NCBI GenBank assembly: GCA_963790305.1
Contig: CAWBOC010000009.1
Coordinates: 768,001 to 832,000 of the forward strand
Direction of reading: 5' to 3'
Length of the DNA: 64,000 bases
Source: an uncultured Gemmatimonadaceae bacterium
GTDB taxonomy: Bacteria > Gemmatimonadota > Gemmatimonadetes > Gemmatimonadales > Gemmatimonadaceae
Notes under the pieces: model-generated
What the model was told of the DNA's origin: nothing
Database searches by the model: none
The model's input: only the letters and a program-made list of their open reading frames with translations
Shown: piece by piece, positions 12,740 through 63,670 of the stretch
Layout of the letters: the number at the start of each line of letters is the position of its first letter
How positions within the stretch are numbered: position 1 is the stretch's first letter
Program-made: the position numbers and the translations under genes

Positions 12740-12854
12740 ACGGCAAAGATGTCAGATGTCAGAATACAGATTTCAGAGTTCAGACTGCTCGGGTCCTGGG
12801 CCTGCGAGTTCTGAATTCTGAATTCTGTATTCTGACATCTGACATCTTTGCCGT
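12740..12854. repeat. Inverted tandem-repeat element, 7-mer family 2 (TCAGA core)
   Basis: Perfect 31-bp terminal inverted repeat acggcaaagatgtcagatgtcagaatacaga / tctgtattctgacatctgacatctttgccgt. Confidence 0.95.
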
Positions 12855-15697: not shown

Positions 15698-15809
15698 ACG
15701 GCAAAGATGTCAGATGTCAGAATACAGAATTCAGAATTCAGAGTGCCCGGATCCTGGGCCGGCGAAATCTGAATTCTGAAATCTGTATTCTGATATCTGA
15801 CATCTTTGC
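15698..15809. repeat. Inverted tandem-repeat element, family 2
   Basis: acggcaaagatgtcagatgtcagaatacaga...tctgtattctgatatctgacatctttgc; near-copy of 12740-12854 including the spacer. Confidence 0.95.
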
Positions 15810-18214: not shown

Positions 18215-18296
18215 TCGAGGTGGTCCAGGCAGTCGAGGTGATCAACGTGAAGGCGCCTCGATCACGTCGACATCCTCGAAAACCTCGACAACCTTC
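18208..18296. repeat. Inverted tandem-repeat element, family 1, between convergent genes
   Basis: gtagtcgaggtggtccaggcagtcgaggtgatc...gatcacgtcgacatcctcgaaaacctcgacaacc; contains the M23 stop codon. Confidence 0.85.
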
Positions 18297-18948: not shown

Positions 18949-19677
18949 GTGACGACCGACCGAACGATTGTAGGAACCGCCATTCTCGCCGTGGGCCTCG
19001 TGCTGGCGGGATTGCTCGTGGGCGGCGGGTTCGCGAAGGGGCGCGACGCCGATCACTTCGTCACCGTGAAGGGAGTCTCCGAGCGCGAAGCACGAGCCGA
19101 CCTCGCGATCTGGCCGCTCGCCATCGTCGCCGCCGACAATGACCTGAGCCGCGCGCACGCGAGCCTGCTGCGCAGCGTGCGTGAGATCAAGACGTTCCTC
19201 GCCCGCAACCAGCTCGACACCACCGAGCTCACGCTCCAGCAGTTCGTCGTTTCCGACGCGCTCACGAACCAGTACGGCGGTGGGAACGTGACGACGCGAT
19301 TCGTGATCCGGCAGACGGTCGTCGTTCGCTCGACGCAGCCCGAACGCGTGGCGGCGGCAAGCCAGCGCGTGGGAGAGCTGGTGAGCGCAGGCGTCGTGCT
19401 CTCGTCAGGCGGCGAGTATGGGCCGGGTGGGCCGACCTACGTCTTCACCAAGCTCAACGACCTGAAGCCGCCGATGATCGCCGAGGCGACGGCGCGCGCC
19501 CGCGAGGCGGCCGAGCAGTTCGCTCGCGACGCGCGCAGCGAGCTTGGCGGCATTCGACGGGCGAACCAGGGGATCTTCGAGATCCTCCCCCGCGACCAGG
19601 CGCCGGGCATCTTCGAAGGGAACCAGATTCTGAAGACGGTGCGCGTGGTGTCGACGATCGAGTATCTGCTGGATTGA
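18949..19677 (+). CDS. SIMPL (DUF541) domain protein
   Basis: VTVKGVSEREARADLAIWP...IRRANQG...KTVRVVSTIEY. Confidence 0.85.
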   Translation: MTTDRTIVGTAILAVGLVLAGLLVGGGFAKGRDADHFVTVKGVSEREARADLAIWPLAIVAADNDLSRAHASLLRSVREIKTFLARNQLDTTELTLQQFVVSDALTNQYGGGNVTTRFVIRQTVVVRSTQPERVAAASQRVGELVSAGVVLSSGGEYGPGGPTYVFTKLNDLKPPMIAEATARAREAAEQFARDARSELGGIRRANQGIFEILPRDQAPGIFEGNQILKTVRVVSTIEYLLD

Positions 19678-20218
19678 GGCGCTAGAGGCGCTAAAGGCGC
19701 TAAAGGCGCTAACCACCGCGCGGTAGCAGACTCTGTTGCAGGCGGTACAAAAGAAAGCCGGTTCGTCGGGCCGCGTCCGCTGCCGCCTCAATCGCCGTTT
19801 CAGGGAGGTACTCGAGCAGCGTGATCGCTTCGAGGTGCGTCTCCAGCTCGCGCAGTGACCCTGACGCGATAGAGAGATGGCGAAGGTAATCCCCACGCGT
19901 GGAACGCCCGAACCCTTCAGCGATGTTGGCCGGAACCGAGACGGCGGCGCGTCGCAGTTGTGCAGCCAATCCGTATCGTTCCGATCCGGAAGCTGGCGAG
20001 CGACTCGATAGACTTCCACGAGCAGCAGCATGGTGTTCCGCCACGTGACGAGGTCACGGTGCGTCTTGTGCGACGGGCGGGAGCCAGACTGCTGTTGAGC
20101 GATCACGCCGGAGTATGAGGCCCTTTCGCGGACGAGATAGCATCGTTCAATCTCCAGCCGTACCTCCTCGGCGCAGCGCCTCTAGCGCCTCTAGCGCCTC
20201 TAGCACCTCTAGCGCTTT
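19676..20218. mobile_element. Putative element: four-helix-bundle gene enclosed by inverted arrays of the 9-mer (G/A)AGGCGCTA (family 3)
   Basis: Left arm of 4 units at 19676-19711; right arm of 5 reverse-complement units at 20174-20218; a single cargo gene lies between. Mobility is inferred, not shown. Confidence 0.55.
19709..20106 (-). CDS. Four-helix-bundle protein (23S rRNA intervening-sequence protein / Avd-like), one-base frameshift near 19985
   Basis: [25 protein letters not shown] in one frame continues as [47 protein letters not shown] in the next. Confidence 0.88.
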
Positions 20219-20329: not shown

Positions 20330-20764
20330 ATGCGCAAACGACTCATTCTCTCGCTCATCACGCTCGCGGTCGCCGCGCCGTCGATCGGTGCCGCGCAAAA
20401 CGGGAAAGGTCCGCCGCCCGTGCCCAAGCGCGACACCGTCGCGGTGGCACTCGTCTCCACGGATTCCGTGGCGGCAGGCCAGGTCGAGAGGGTCGTTCGC
20501 GGACGACATCGTGAAGTGCAGTTCTGCTTCGAGGAGAGCGGACTCAAGACCGATCCCGAGCTGTCAGGCACGTTCGCGATGGTGATTAGCCTCGATACGC
20601 TCGGAACCGTGTCGCGCGTCGATCCGTCGTGGCGCGAGTGGAGCGGGCCTGACGGCACCGCTGTCGAGGCGTGCGTGATGCAGCGCGCGCTCACGTGGAA
20701 GTTTCCCGCGTACCTCGCCGTGGCCACGCCGCGGCACGAGGTCACCTTTCAGTTCTCGCGATAG
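20330..20764 (+). CDS. Secreted protein with AgmX/PglI (TonB C-terminal-like) domain
   Basis: Signal peptide; VQFCFEESGLKTDPELSG...VEACV...WKFP pattern. Confidence 0.65.
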   Translation: MRKRLILSLITLAVAAPSIGAAQNGKGPPPVPKRDTVAVALVSTDSVAAGQVERVVRGRHREVQFCFEESGLKTDPELSGTFAMVISLDTLGTVSRVDPSWREWSGPDGTAVEACVMQRALTWKFPAYLAVATPRHEVTFQFSR

Positions 20765-29513: not shown

Positions 29514-29628
29514 AGAGGCGCTAGAGGCGCTAGAGGCGCTAAACGCGCTGGGGTCTTAGCGCATTCCAGCGGCTGCAAGCACCTGTGATCGTCGAGCGCC
29601 TCTAGCGCCTCTAGCGCCTCTAGCGCCT
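29514..29628. repeat. Inverted tandem-repeat element, family 3, without cargo
   Basis: (gaggcgcta)x3 ... (tagcgcctc)-type x4, with a spacer of about 50 nt. Confidence 0.92.
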
Positions 29629-38952: not shown

Positions 38953-39077
38953 AGGGTCAGGAGTCAGGAGTCAGGAGTCAGGGGGGATCAGGGAGTGGGT
39001 TACAGGAGAGAACGACCTCGCTCCTGACACCTCGACCCTGACACCCCCTGATCCCTGACTCCTGACTCCTGATCCCT
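38953..39077. repeat. Inverted tandem-repeat element, 7-mer family 4 (GGAGTCA)
   Basis: agggtcaggagtcaggagtcaggagtcagggg...ccctgatccctgactcctgactcctgatccct. Confidence 0.92.
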
Positions 39078-39082
39078 GTTTT

Positions 39083-50164: not shown

Positions 50165-50252
50165 AGGGCGCTAGGGGCGCTAAGGGCGCTAGGAGCGCTA
50201 ATGTGGTTAGGGTTTCAGCGCCCTTAGCGCCCCCAGCGCCCTTAGCGCCCTA
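50165..50252. repeat. Inverted tandem-repeat element, family 3 variant (AGGGCGCTA)
   Basis: agggcgctaggggcgctaagggcgctaggagcgcta...cagcgcccttagcgcccccagcgcccttagcgcccta; supplies the Omp85 stop codon. Confidence 0.9.
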
Positions 50253-52746: not shown

Positions 52747-52870
52747 ACGCGAATGCGGAATTCGGAATGCGGATTCTTATGATTGACCTACGGGTATCGA
52801 CAGTTCATCACAACTATCCGCATTCCGCATTCCGCATTCGAGTTCCGCATTCGAGTTCCGCATTCGAGTC
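52747..52870. repeat. Inverted tandem-repeat element, 7-mer family 5 (GAATGCG)
   Basis: gcgaatgcggaattcggaatgcggat...atccgcattccgcattccgcattcg plus repeated ttccgcattcgag units. Confidence 0.9.
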
Positions 52871-55440: not shown

Positions 55441-55565
55441 AGGGGTCAGGAGTCAGGAATCAGCGGTCAGGGGGTGTCAGGGTGAAGGTTCGAGGAGAGA
55501 GCTCGCGCGATTCACAACCTCTTCCCTGACACCCCCTGATCGCTGACTCCTGACTCCTGACCCCT
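55441..55565. repeat. Inverted tandem-repeat element, family 4
   Basis: aggggtcaggagtcaggaatcagcggtcagggggtgtcaggg...ccctgacaccccctgatcgctgactcctgactcctgacccct. Confidence 0.93.
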
Positions 55566-57671: not shown

Positions 57672-57778
57672 AGACGTCAGGTGTCAGACGTCAGGGGATC
57701 AGTAGCCAGGGAAGCGCGACGTAGTTGTCAGTTCTGAATTCTGAAATCTGTATTCTGAACTCTGTCATCTTTGCCGTT
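57672..57778. repeat. Asymmetric repeat element: family 2 right arm with a divergent GTCAG left arm
   Basis: ttctgaattctgaaatctgtattctgaactctgtcatctttgccgtt matches the family 2 right arm; left side is gacgtcaggtgtcagacgtcagg. Confidence 0.75.
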
Positions 57779-58845: not shown

Positions 58846-58930
58846 AGGTCGTCGAGGATGTCGAGGATGTCCATGTGATCGAGGCGCCTTCACCTTGATC
58901 ACCTCGATCACCTAGACGACCTCGACAACC
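58846..58930. repeat. Inverted tandem-repeat element, family 1
   Basis: gtcgtcgaggatgtcgaggatgtc...gatcacctcgatcacctagacgacctcgacaacc; core is the reverse complement of the 18208 core. Confidence 0.87.
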
Positions 58931-59526: not shown

Positions 59527-59632
59527 GCGAATGCGGATTGCGGAATGCGGATTCGATGCATGCCAAGATGATTCCAACGTGTCGCGAGGCATCCCGACGT
59601 CCCAGAATCCGCATTCCGCAGTCCGCATTCGT
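59527..59632. repeat. Inverted tandem-repeat element, family 5
   Basis: cgaatgcggattgcggaatgcggattc...gaatccgcattccgcagtccgcattcg. Confidence 0.92.
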
Positions 59633-60998: not shown

Positions 60999-61142
60999 TA
61001 GGGGTCAGGAGTCAGGAGTCAGGGGTCAGGGAAGGAAAGGCGCGGCAGCTTCGCTGCCGCGCTCATCGGATGAGGGCCGCTGGCGCGAAGCGCCGCGGCC
61101 CCTTTCCTTCCCCGACCCCTGACTCCTGACTCCAGACCCCTA
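60999..61142. repeat. Inverted tandem-repeat element, family 4, with branched internal hairpins
   Basis: taggggtcaggagtcaggagtcaggggtcagggaaggaaagg...cctttccttccccgacccctgactcctgactccagacccta-like arm; two GC-rich internal hairpins. Confidence 0.9.
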
Positions 61143-61285
61143 ACCTTTGATCCGCCAGATCCCCGGTTAACAACGCCACAGTTGACCTTTCAATGCCGGC
61201 GCTATTATCCTGCGCGTCCCCGACTGAGCTAGCCTGCACGACGGCCAACCGGCCCACACCATCACCTTCCATGTAAGGGGTGTGT

Positions 61286-62680: not shown

Positions 62681-63564
62681 CCGCCACCAGTCTTCCGCTG
62701 CTCATCAACGCCTCCGCGCCGCGCGCGCGAGAGGTGACCGAGGCCGTCCACAAGAGCGGGCTCTCGATCGAGGCGCGCGAGCTGCCCGCCGGGGAGCTGG
62801 GGCGCACGATCGAGGAGCTGGCGAAGAACGGCGTTAGGCGCGTGGCCGTCGCTGGGGGAGACGGCACCATTGCGATCGCTGCCGGCCTCGCGTCGAAGCT
62901 CTCCTTCGAGCTCGCCGTGATCCCGGGTGGAACGCTCAACCACCTTGCCACCGACCTCGGCATCCCGGACTCGCTCGAGGAGGCGCTGCGCGTGGCGATC
63001 ACCGGAGATGCACGACCGATCGACGCCGCCACCGTGAATGGCCAGCTCTTTCTGAACACCAGCTCGGTCGGCACGTACGTCACATTCGTCCGCATGCGGG
63101 ACCGCCTCGAGCGCTACCTTGGCTACCGGATTGCGAGCCTCGTGGCGGGCATTCGTCTCCTCCTTCGTCCGCGACTCTTCACCGTCGAGGTCGAGGTCGA
63201 AGGCCAAATGCGATCCGCCGTGACACCCCTCGTGTTCATCGGCGTCGGCGAGCGCGAGCTGAAGCTCCCGACACTCGGCGGCCGCGCGAAAGACGGCCGG
63301 CGTGGATTGCACCTGATGATCGTTCGCGGTCGATCCCCCGCGCGAATAGCGGCGCTGGCCTTCGCCGCGGCGGCACGCGGAACGCGATCTGCCGCGCAGA
63401 GTCCCGCACTCGACGCGTTCGTGGTAAATCGACTGACGATTCGAATGCGCCGCCCCCGAGGAAACGTCGCGACCAATGGCGAGCTTCACGCGATGTCGAG
63501 TCCGCTCGAGTATCGGTGGGTGCCGGGCGCGGTGAAGGTGGTACACCCGAGGTCGTCGAAGTAG
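62677..63564 (+). CDS. Diacylglycerol kinase (DAGKc) family protein; start uncertain
   Basis: LLINAS, AGGDGT, PGGTLNHLA, NGE. Confidence 0.82.
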   Translation: MTATSLPLLINASAPRAREVTEAVHKSGLSIEARELPAGELGRTIEELAKNGVRRVAVAGGDGTIAIAAGLASKLSFELAVIPGGTLNHLATDLGIPDSLEEALRVAITGDARPIDAATVNGQLFLNTSSVGTYVTFVRMRDRLERYLGYRIASLVAGIRLLLRPRLFTVEVEVEGQMRSAVTPLVFIGVGERELKLPTLGGRAKDGRRGLHLMIVRGRSPARIAALAFAAAARGTRSAAQSPALDAFVVNRLTIRMRRPRGNVATNGELHAMSSPLEYRWVPGAVKVVHPRSSK

Positions 63565-63670
63565 TCGAGGTCGTCGAGGTGAGCAAGGGAACGTCGTCGC
63601 CTCGATTACCTCGACGACCTCGACACCCTCGACGACCTCACATTGACCACCTCGAGCACCTCGAGCACCT
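63548..63670. repeat. Inverted tandem-repeat element, family 1
   Basis: gaggtcgtcgaagtagtcgaggtcgtcgagg...cctcgattacctcgacgacctcgacaccctcgacgacctc; contains the upstream stop codon. Confidence 0.87.

Follow-up and report, generated by a model that had tools for sequence, protein, structure and literature searches.

The DNA analyzed here (a stretch of 64,000 nucleotides, hereafter the window) contains, at positions 19676-20218, a unit of 540 bases in which a small broken gene is closed by mirror-image runs of a 9-base repeat. With confidence somewhat above even, we read this locus as a decaying copy of a transposase-free cassette, similar to the intervening sequences (IVS) of rRNA and accompanied by REPIN-like gene-less derivatives, in which a gene of family PF05635 lies within inverted 9-mer arrays. 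Few small orphan proteins of bacteria are commoner than those of PF05635, a family that came to light in rRNA intervening sequences. To our knowledge, they have had no known function since their discovery, and tandem heptamer repeats, such as GGGAATC of Xanthomonas and those of cyanobacteria, are equally unexplained. The locus and its genome join the two, with properties that can be tested. An earlier note on the window had described one small gene between four left and five inverted right copies of the repeat. That observation is confirmed, the right copies being partly imperfect; the interpretation first attached to it, an insertable or excisable unit, is partly supported, and all of its computable predictions are borne out. 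From left to right, the components of the locus are as follows.

18949..19677, plus strand: SIMPL-family gene (PF04402, 1.8e-15), the upstream neighbour, at whose stop codon the cassette starts
19676..19711, plus strand: left arm, four exact tandem RAGGCGCTA 9-mers (GAGGCGCTA twice, AAGGCGCTA twice)
19709..20106, minus strand: PF05635 (23S_rRNA_IVP, four-helix-bundle) pseudogene, with the C-terminal frame at 19709-20044 and the N-terminal helix in another frame, to about 20106
20175..20218, plus strand: right arm, about five inverted 9-mers of the TAGCGCCTC type, two exact and about three with one or two mismatches
20330..20764, plus strand: downstream ORF without Pfam match, the right border of the polymorphic interval

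Tandem Repeats Finder assigns period 9 to both arms, with 4.0 copies and a 96% match on the left and 4.6 copies and a 93% match on the right. RAGGCGCTA occurs 11 times in the window against an expected 0.80, a count reached in 0 of 100 shuffles. The left arm opens on the last bases of the SIMPL stop codon, the SIMPL C-terminus being identical in congeners with an empty site, and its last unit ends as the TAG of the enclosed gene (cta on the plus strand, 19709-19711), which agrees with the claim that the arm supplies the stop codon. In the predicted minimum-energy fold the left arm pairs with the right arm both as RNA (z -5.6) and as DNA (z -3.1), as expected of the long RNA or single-stranded DNA stem that had been proposed. 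The name AgmX, previously given to the downstream gene, is unconfirmed, because a Pfam search with that ORF returned nothing at E ≤ 0.01.

Membership of the enclosed gene in PF05635 is settled by sequence matches to the family HMM and to the PDB, in line with its first identification as a four-helix-bundle (IVP) gene. The minus-strand ORF at 19709-20044 scores 82.3 bits with the HMM (cut-off 33.8; E 3.4e-23) and aligns to positions 26-103 of the 106 in the profile, and a whole-genome profile scan recovers the same match. Paralog P0002 of the same genome, used as the query in place of the broken protein, matches PDB 2GSC (XCC0516), a solved pentameric four-helix-bundle member, over residues 4-120 (E 4.5e-22). 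The cassette protein has the R-x3-S-x3-N-x2-E core, which is part of the family motif quoted in PMC3936711, and R43, S47, N51 and E54 are invariant when it is aligned with three intact paralogs. The first 25 or so profile positions are encoded in a different frame, and comparison with the intact ortholog in a congener (G004) places a 1-base loss at about 19983; judging from its sequence, then, the cassette gene of the genome under study (G000, 94% complete) is a pseudogene. That the arms are collapsed or mis-joined repeats, the frameshift a sequencing error, and nothing biological enclosed at all is scarcely credible. Such repeats do break short-read assemblies, and the public contigs from four runs at this locus are short pieces that end at the arms; nevertheless, the indel lies outside any homopolymer and is accompanied by a substitution, alignments of the G004 and G008 orthologs run through both arms, and the architecture recurs in independent assemblies of eight congeners and in 78 unrelated records. 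One contig joint, from 19710 to 20174 with 15 other letters between, was rejected as an excision product, as it represents a gene-less hairpin from elsewhere.

Inverted tandem 7- or 9-mer arrays (flank score at least 14) flank all six PF05635 genes of G000, as the cassette reading predicts for every family member in the genome, compared with 3 of 397 other genes of 250-600 nt. Such arms also flank 46 of 48 tested PF05635 matches in the eight congeners, where one match at a contig edge was dropped and flanks were scored over 330 nt, compared with 260 nt for the controls, as well as 62 of 78 testable PF05635 loci from many phyla, against 5 of 264 displaced controls. Among these 62 armed loci, all outside G000, the period is 7 in 55 and the 5' arm has more G than C in 58. 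All six G000 genes differ in their unit family, an outcome with P = 0.025 when the chance of each family is weighted by its size; P = 0.19 under a uniform null counts against the cassette reading, as do three unit families in G008 that each surround two IVP genes, and one IVP gene per unit family is therefore described here as a tendency. The ACGCAGAGG family, with 14 members, has no gene copy in this assembly. Three of the six genes (c4, c5, c6), from three of the four largest hairpin families, are broken, and thus present-day hairpins need no intact cognate gene. Two kinds of candidate were set aside: a putative seventh cassette at C2:163365-163862 (gap 434), where an ordinary gene, not similar to IVP, lies between two separate short hairpins, and long-range 'pairs' at 1-3 kb, which are neighbouring hairpins of one family.

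Alternatively, host processes (slippage, hairpin-directed palindrome repair and gene conversion) might make and keep the arrays while the IVP genes ride in the loops as passengers with no action on the arms. This is distinctly unlikely in our estimation. Hairpins that outlast their genes would be expected under it, as would the presence of different unit families at one site across species and the unrelated loops of AGGCGCT-family hairpins; tandem 7-9-mer arrays as such are, moreover, about as frequent in IVP-free relatives (7.5-19 per 100 kb) as in IVP-rich ones (10-21 per 100 kb). Inverted pairs, however, are almost absent from the samples of relatives in which no IVP gene is found. Partial samples of three IVP-free relatives contain 0, 1 and 0 hairpins in 324, 213 and 160 kb, and those of three IVP-rich relatives 4, 12 and 3 in 238, 389 and 260 kb, for totals of 1 in 697 kb versus 19 in 888 kb. 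A passenger would also not be expected to travel with its unit across phyla (Mantel r 0.13, p 0.0045, with an identical unit in different phyla), to have its stop codon in or at an arm, as in 4 cassettes, to be bracketed as tightly as it is in the armed distant loci, or to come and go jointly with the arms, as at the SIMPL site.

At that site the whole series can be seen: empty, filled, decaying, and finally reduced to a bare hairpin. It is empty in G002 and G007, filled and intact in G004, filled with a frameshifted gene in G000, and part-deleted in G008, where the gene 3' end is gone and the arms are longer; G005 has a bare hairpin only, and G001 and G006 have a hairpin built from a different unit, the 7-mer GGGCCAA. 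The filled, empty and absent states anticipated for relatives are thus matched by filled, part-deleted, hairpin-only, other-hairpin and empty ones. Comparison of empty (G002, G007) with filled sites, in genomes about 84% identical there, reveals no target-site duplication and a replacement of about 17-20 nt. As regards a pre-existing hairpin as a possible target, the empty site of G002 folds only weakly (-13.5 kcal/mol, z -1.2, with 28 of 200 shuffles folding as well). Among 342 scored pairs of orthologous hairpins whose flanks are 84.7% identical, 36 are changed on both sides yet still paired, a count to be read with the caveat that alignment shift in tandem repeats can mimic compensatory change. 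Many hairpins have stayed in place between species that are about 85% identical; this counts against the cassette reading and implies that movement is rare on that time scale. One site can, on the other hand, hold different unit families in different species. Both features are seen among the gene-less hairpins of the window, which are given here without strand.

29514..29628: RAGGCGCTA 9-mer family, 4 + 4 units with a 45-nt loop, in a divergent spacer; fold z -9.1
50165..50252: variant unit AGGGCGCTA, fold z -7.6; the orthologous G004 site has AGGGTCCTC arms and unchanged borders
12747..12847: TCTGAAT/AGATGTC 7-mer family, retained at its orthologous site in G004, G005 and G002, where the arms have changed in a compensatory way
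15705..15805: TCTGAAT 7-mer family; a GTCAGGG-family hairpin is at the same site in G005
38956..39078: GGGGTCA/AGGAGTC 7-mer family with type A loop; site empty in G002
52751..52869: GAATGCG 7-mer family; a two-unit remnant only at the G004 site
55441..55565: GGGGTCA family with type A loop
56494..56620: GGGGTCA family
61000..61145: GGGGTCA family with conserved type B loop
7036..7109: CCTCGAC 9-mer family
18256-18294, 57672-57764, 58851-58925, 59532-59630 and 63548-63670: other hairpins, of CCTCGAC and other families

The first two are the arms that had been reported without cargo, in the same and in a variant unit, and both are real. Across G000 there are about 271 gene-less hairpins in unit families shared with IVP-gene arms. 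The further claim that the empty copies are cargo-less derivatives has direct support only at the SIMPL site and, through unit order, in the GGGGTCA family; for the rest, derivation is inferred. The exact order of unit variants in the GGGGTCA cassette recurs, with at most one mismatch, in 20 of 63 GGGGTCA hairpins, where each of eleven other orders scores 0-5, and this similarity supports a common ancestry of these gene-less copies with a cassette. The family has two conserved loop types, A and B, and the ends of type A loops resemble the inner ends of the cassette weakly (mean 9.5 versus 8.4 in shuffles; 16 of 22 above their own shuffles). The loops of 40 AGGCGCT hairpins are related neither to each other nor to the cassette, which counts against the cassette reading.

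On a rival explanation, these hairpins are primarily functional RNA structures, acting as terminators or mRNA stabilisers where genes end. The IVP gene would then be an intervening sequence at the level of mRNA, with RNase III cutting its stem as it does in 23S rRNA and with the protein binding or regulating such RNA stems; spread would be secondary, and selection on RNA would keep the stems. We hold this to be unlikely. Gene-less hairpins start a median of 3 nt behind a stop codon, and 77% of 293 stop-facing distances are at most 10 nt. They occupy 87 of 508 convergent spacers versus 29 of 549 divergent ones, and in tandem spacers 96 are closer to the stop and 20 closer to the start. They are predicted to be very stable, with a median of -71 kcal/mol at 97 nt; as RNA, the whole cassette closes on itself through its two arms, and many sites are kept between species with pairing preserved. 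The stem of the Coxiella IVS, moreover, is cut by RNase III in vitro, at the first repeat, according to the accessible text of PMC4990558. What this explanation leaves unaccounted for is polarity: the G-rich arm is 5' (G > C) in 266 of the 271 gene-less hairpins, and RNA function cannot explain this, because the opposite polarity would fold equally well. In addition, a test for RNA-level selection in 119 tandem-spacer hairpins found no difference between sense and antisense strands, either in stability (59 against 59) or in G-U pairs (217 against 197). The right arm of the cassette is followed by no U-tract, 29 hairpins lie in divergent promoter regions, and in 5 of 6 cassettes the IVP gene is convergent with a neighbour whose stop abuts the arm, and is therefore antisense to it.

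Returning to the IVS-like cassette, we infer its mode of movement as follows. It would have been gained as one unit, right behind the SIMPL stop codon, in an ancestor of part of the genus, and the layout would be that of an autonomous element with non-autonomous derivatives. A pentamer of the IVP protein may recognise the periodic arms in a folded-back form, more likely of DNA than of RNA, and may bring in host enzymes of replication or repair that copy or maintain them. Each hairpin would have one arm templated on the other, accounting for both the compensatory changes and the fixed polarity. After decay of the gene, as in G000, the hairpin would persist as a stable structure at the 3' end of the neighbouring gene. 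The protein contains no recognised nuclease or recombinase domain, which counts against the cassette reading.

A bolder variant, which we consider highly doubtful, is that the arms are written by fixed-polarity copying rather than by cut-and-paste, the hairpins being made and renewed without a transposase in a manner resembling telomere healing. With the IVP pentamer keeping a short G-rich unit in register, a host polymerase would extend a 3' end by repeated additions of this unit, at a site behind a gene where DNA is broken, a fork has stalled or a hairpin is extruded. Folded back on itself, the strand would then serve as its own template for the C-rich arm. Such copying would explain why the 5' arm is G-rich on both strands, why arm copy numbers are unequal and why loops are unrelated, and also the overwriting of arms in place by another unit family and the changes on both sides at a near-neutral rate. 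It would likewise tie the kinship of IVP with Avd, the cofactor of diversity-generating retroelements (DGRs), to nucleic-acid copying.

The cassette most closely recalls the ORF-bearing 23S rRNA IVS of Coxiella and Leptospira, in which, as the available text of PMC4990558 describes, terminal inverted repeats form a long stem whose loop contains a PF05635/S23p gene, the ORF is decaying and the whole unit measures about 430-540 nt. The same text reports, for the IVS in helix 45 of the C. burnetii 23S rRNA, a 28-bp stem with tandem heptamers upstream of the S23p ORF, these heptamers (GACAGAT) being variable in number and located in the 5' part of the stem region, and it presents ORF-bearing IVS as selfish and horizontally acquired. 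Unlike an IVS, the cassette lies between protein-coding genes (the SIMPL gene and the unnamed ORF), outside any 23S or 16S rRNA helix, and an Rfam search of the window returned zero RNA families; both of its arms are whole 9-mer arrays, and tens of gene-less copies of those arms exist.

Parallels with the REPIN/RAYT system, as far as the accessible portions of PMC3116915 and PMC3337134 describe it, include tens to hundreds of short hairpin-forming repeat doublets scattered over spacers, a low-copy gene flanked by its own inverted repeat family, and several families per genome, each with its own gene. A gene flanked by an inverted dispersed repeat is indeed found here for 6 of 6 genes, with the 271 gene-less hairpins in the same families. 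The differences are that the protein is a four-helix bundle of about 130 aa rather than a Y1 (HUH) transposase, and that the arms are tandem 7-9-nt arrays with a fixed polarity, the G-rich arm being 5', rather than single REP palindromes. A profile search of the whole 94%-complete genome for Y1_Tnp (PF01797) gave no match, although control genomes matched, and one for RVT_1 (PF00078) in the same genome also gave none, so that the reported lack of a transposase or reverse transcriptase in the window extends, for these two profiles, to the genome. MITEs are short gene-less elements with inverted ends, derived from or sharing ends with a gene-bearing element. The gene-less hairpins resemble them in sharing ends with a gene-bearing cassette, and in the two conserved loop types of the GGGGTCA family; in contrast to MITEs, no transposase is encoded and the ends are periodic arrays of variable copy number. 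A target-site duplication, as noted above, is not seen at the one empty site compared, in genomes only about 84% identical there. Avd, the DGR accessory protein, belongs to the same superfamily and has a homologous four-helix-bundle fold (4DWL versus 2GSC), as set out in the available part of PMC10053308. The absence of RVT_1 from the genome searched and of a template/variable repeat (TR/VR) pair, and arms that are inverted arrays rather than TR/VR, separate the cassette from a DGR.

A literature search found no published description of this design of IVP gene and armed hairpin. If the protein acts on the arms, these loci would constitute a widespread class of selfish or domesticated elements that is transposase-free and of which the rRNA IVS is one special case; otherwise, the hairpins nonetheless represent a major feature of gene 3' ends in several phyla, one that is polar and unannotated. 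For Xanthomonas, the accessible text of PMC4692102 counts 70-75 convergent (inverted) intergenic pairs of GGGAATC heptamers per genome; it interprets these, together with GGGGA(C/T)T of Nostoc, as sequences that form G-quadruplexes, without naming a protein. Like the units described here, those repeats are, in the same text, G-rich on one strand and variable in length between species. In each of three genomes, one of Luteimonas and two of Xanthomonas, a single IVP gene was found inside GGGAATC-type arms, which links these repeats to PF05635, and in all three it lies between two genes that we read by eye as accB and accC.

The small minus-strand gene enclosed at 19676-20218 belongs to the 23S_rRNA_IVP family of four-helix-bundle proteins (PF05635, S23p; hereafter IVP), its match scoring 82.3 bits where 33.8 is the cut-off (E 3.4e-23). 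As the earlier note had described, it is framed by inverted tandem arrays of a 9-mer, and the left array begins directly 3' of the TGA of a SIMPL-family gene:

18949-19677, plus strand, SIMPL-family gene (PF04402, E 1.8e-15)
19676-19711, plus strand, left arm, four tandem 9-mers (GAGGCGCTA twice and AAGGCGCTA twice)
20175-20218, plus strand, right arm, about five reverse-complement 9-mer copies

Two of the right-arm copies are exact and three carry one or two mismatches. The window contains 11 copies of RAGGCGCTA against 0.8 expected, a count that none of 100 shuffles reached. The stop codon is indeed supplied by the left arm, its TAG being the end of the innermost unit. When the 556-nt cassette stretch is folded, the arms pair and the gene is looped out, both as RNA (z -5.6) and as single-stranded DNA (z -3.1), as the proposed long stem predicts. 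The PF05635 match spans only profile positions 26-103, the first helix is encoded in another frame, and the intact ortholog in the congener G004 places a one-base loss at about 19983 in the copy of the window's own genome (G000). Given this loss and the displaced first helix, the gene is a pseudogene. The observation at this locus is thus confirmed and its computable predictions hold; the label 'AgmX' for the downstream ORF, which lacks a Pfam match, is not confirmed. The locus is a decaying representative of the IVP cassettes with hairpin arms, a widespread family that has REPIN-like, gene-less relatives.

Congeners that are 84-90% identical in the SIMPL gene were compared behind its stop codon, and the filled, empty and absent states anticipated for this interval all occur among them.

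States of the site behind the SIMPL stop codon
G002, G007: short spacer, no array
G004: cassette, gene intact
G000: cassette, gene frameshifted
G008: cassette, gene lacking its 3' end and frameshifted at further points, arms extended to 8-10 units
G005: bare hairpin of the 9-mer family of the 19676-20218 cassette
G001, G006: hairpin of a different 7-mer, GGGCCAA

The G008 unit has changed from CTAG to CTGG or CTGA on both arms. No target-site duplication was seen between filled and empty sites; about 17-20 nt of the empty spacer is replaced in the filled site. To the right of the site (G004 contig C65 and G008 C233, about 1.7-1.8 kb; G005 C91, about 1.1 kb), these three congeners have an additional gene that separates the cassette or hairpin from the downstream ORF; G000, G002 and G007 lack it.

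A scan of G000 (4.31 Mb on 13 contigs, 94% complete) returned six PF05635 genes. Inverted arrays of tandem 7- or 9-mers bracket every one of them and leave loops of about 430-590 nt, which bears out the expectation of arms around every family member of the genome. Under one scoring rule, a flank score of at least 14 is reached by 6/6 IVP genes versus 3/397 other genes of 250-600 nt. The six unit families are all different: GGGGAGT, GGGGTCA, AGATGTC/TCTGAAT, GTCGAGGTC, GAATGCG and AGGCGCTAR, the last being that of the 19676-20218 cassette. Three of the genes are intact, and frameshifts or truncations affect the other three, including the copy at this locus; the downstream arm contains or adjoins the stop codon of four of the genes. 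In 5/6 cassettes, one arm adjoins the stop codon of a neighbour with which the IVP gene is convergent. The left arm of cassette c1 (C7:167306-167372) mixes 6- and 7-mers (GGGAGT/GGGGAGT) in about 10 units, and beyond its right arm comes one more short inverted copy, such that one cassette end is itself a small hairpin; the same is seen at the left end of the GGGGTCA cassette.

Arms also accompany 46 of the 48 PF05635 matches tested in the eight congeners (one contig-edge match excluded; flank window 330 nt versus 260 nt in controls). A distant set of 80 loci, 78 of them testable, was drawn from Acidobacteriota, Planctomycetota, Chloroflexota, Armatimonadota, Cyanobacteria, Proteobacteria, Gemmatimonadota, Bacteroidota, Bacillota and two archaeal MAGs; here arms are found at 62/78 loci versus 5/264 displaced controls in the same loci, and 55 of these 62 have period 7. 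Across phyla, the arm unit varies in step with protein identity (Mantel r 0.13, p 0.0045), with mean identity of 61% for loci with an identical unit versus about 49% for those with unlike units. Such covariation would be expected from binding specificity, and shared descent of gene and arms would yield it equally well. Identical units are found in different phyla. Exact (GGGAATC)4 arrays occur in Xanthomonas, Luteimonas, Rhodanobacteraceae, Gemmatimonadaceae, Moorena, Thermoanaerobaculia, Elusimicrobia and a Thermoplasmata MAG (loci L107-L186), and this unit is therefore spread over very distant lineages.

The two 'empty' copies noted at 29514-29628 and 50165-50252 are real hairpins, and many more exist. 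Run on the whole of G000, Tandem Repeats Finder detected 1121 arrays that have a period of 7 or 9 and at least 2.8 copies; these include 271 inverted pairs with loops of at most 150 nt.

Gene-less hairpins of G000 by unit type
GAATGCG: 83
GGGGTCA: 63
AGGCGCT: 41
CCTCGAC: 34
ACGCAGAGG: 14
GGGGAGT: 9
TCTGAAT: 9
Several smaller families besides

The six IVP-flanking families are the four largest of these and two small ones. Six draws would all be different with P 0.025 when families are weighted by size and 0.19 with an even draw. The rule of a different family for each gene is not strict in relatives, as G008 has three families with two IVP genes each. The ACGCAGAGG 9-mer family (e.g. C5:5534-5633 and C5:7760-7860) has no IVP-bearing copy in the G000 assembly, its gene being either lost or in the missing 6%. 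Among the GGGGTCA hairpins, 20/63 share the order of unit variants of their cassette (at most one mismatch), versus 0-5 for each of eleven other orders of these units. These hairpins have two conserved loop types; the 40 listed loops of AGGCGCT hairpins (4-58 nt) are unrelated. The type B loop of the GGGGTCA family (about 80 nt), present at 61000-61145 of the window and at 17 sites genome-wide (e.g. C9:361012, C10:17529), occurs in both orientations and has a central TCATCTGATGA between two GC-rich sub-hairpins with GAA/GCGAAGC closures. It resembles a small independent element and hints at a single-stranded DNA stage.

Placement and polarity follow rules. Against the 4053 genes (88.6% coding) returned by our own simple gene caller, the hairpins divide into 119 in tandem spacers, 87 in the 508 convergent spacers and 29 in the 549 divergent ones. 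The median distance to an adjacent stop codon is 3 nt (at most 10 nt in 77% of 293 distances) and to an adjacent start codon 39 nt; in tandem spacers, 96 hairpins are closer to the stop and 20 to the start. The remaining 36 of 271 have midpoints inside called genes, which may reflect over-calling or arrays read through as protein. G exceeds C in the 5' arm of 266/271 hairpins, and this arm is purine-rich in 270/271, as in the armed loci of other phyla (58/62 and 59/62). Because an inverted repeat reads identically on both strands, this polarity is a real construction rule, and stem stability does not account for it.

Many of the window's gene-less hairpins are retained at orthologous sites in congeners. 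Eight pairwise comparisons at six sites gave 342 scored base pairs, with another 41 lost to alignment gaps. Of the scored pairs, 222 are unchanged, 36 have both sides changed and still pair, 24 have one side changed and still pair, and 60 are broken, register shifts in repeats being able to inflate the double-change and broken classes alike. The flanks are 84.7% identical. Independent change would be expected to yield only a few double changes, versus the 36 counted. At several sites, unit families differ between species within the same borders. For instance, 50165-50252 carries AGGGCGCTA in G000 versus AGGGTCCTC in G004, with the loop partly shared; the unit family likewise differs at this site and at 18256-18294 in comparisons with G004, G005, G002 and G001. 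Either the arms would have been overwritten in place or the exact position was hit again.

Selection on RNA should leave more G-U pairs than A-C mismatches on the sense strand of the upstream gene's transcript. In the 119 tandem-spacer hairpins, no such difference appears: sense and antisense are each the more stable strand in 59 hairpins, with 217 versus 197 G-U pairs. Mini-hairpins closed by GAA and GCGAAGC, such as those in the type B loops, would be unusually stable in DNA. No RNA run was found to contain the locus. On these grounds, we lean toward a DNA-level process that makes and keeps the arms. The hairpins may also act as RNA structures at 3' ends.

The absence of a transposase and a reverse transcriptase from the window extends to the whole of G000, where neither Y1/HUH transposase (PF01797) nor PF00078 matches were found by searches that were positive in named control genomes. 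How the elements spread, and what the IVP protein contributes, we infer. PF05635 was found in 36/41 genomes of the order (counting G000 and the unpublished G015, on which no conclusion depends). Hairpins were counted in samples of six relatives (first 20 contigs, at most 20 kb per contig).

Short-loop inverted pairs in relatives
G011, IVP-free: 0 in 324 kb
G018, IVP-free: 1 in 213 kb
G031, IVP-free: 0 in 160 kb
G027, IVP-rich: 4 in 238 kb
G024, IVP-rich: 12 in 389 kb
G016, IVP-rich: 3 in 260 kb

Plain tandem arrays are similarly frequent in both groups. This comparison of three with three related genomes supports, and does not prove, that hairpins go with IVP genes.

The anatomy of the 19676-20218 cassette is also that of the Coxiella 23S intervening sequence, but inside an rRNA gene: that element is described as 428-444 nt long, its terminal inverted repeats forming a 28-bp stem that loops out a decaying S23p ORF, with two or three tandem GACAGAT heptamers ahead of the ORF and RNase III cleavage at the first repeat (PMC4990558). 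The closest organisational parallel to cassette plus gene-less hairpins is REPIN/RAYT (PMC3116915, PMC3337134). GGGAATC heptamer arrays of Xanthomonas, 70-75 as convergent pairs, have been reported in a paper whose available sections leave the IVP protein unmentioned (PMC4692102). Two Xanthomonas genomes and one Luteimonas genome each gave a single PF05635 gene, within GGGAATC-type arms and flanked in all three by two genes read by eye as accB and accC; a G000 paralog matches the solved Xanthomonas protein XCC0516 (2GSC, 4.5e-22). Other work counts 18 such genes inside cas loci (PMC3936711) and links PF05635 to Avd (PMC10053308). In the full-text literature, with subscription journals and supplements outside its coverage, we found no paper tying PF05635 genes to inverted tandem-repeat arms or dispersed heptamer hairpins. 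New relative to print are the complete set of states at a single site (empty through to bare hairpin), the polarity and stop-codon rules, the near one-to-one relation of IVP genes to unit families, and the co-occurrence of hairpins and IVP genes across genomes. IVP matches also lie within open frames of 715, 539 and 488 aa (G017:C36:11356-11670, G027:C95:101973-102251 and G035:C5:264550-264852, respectively), which could represent IVP copies fused to, or nested within, larger genes.
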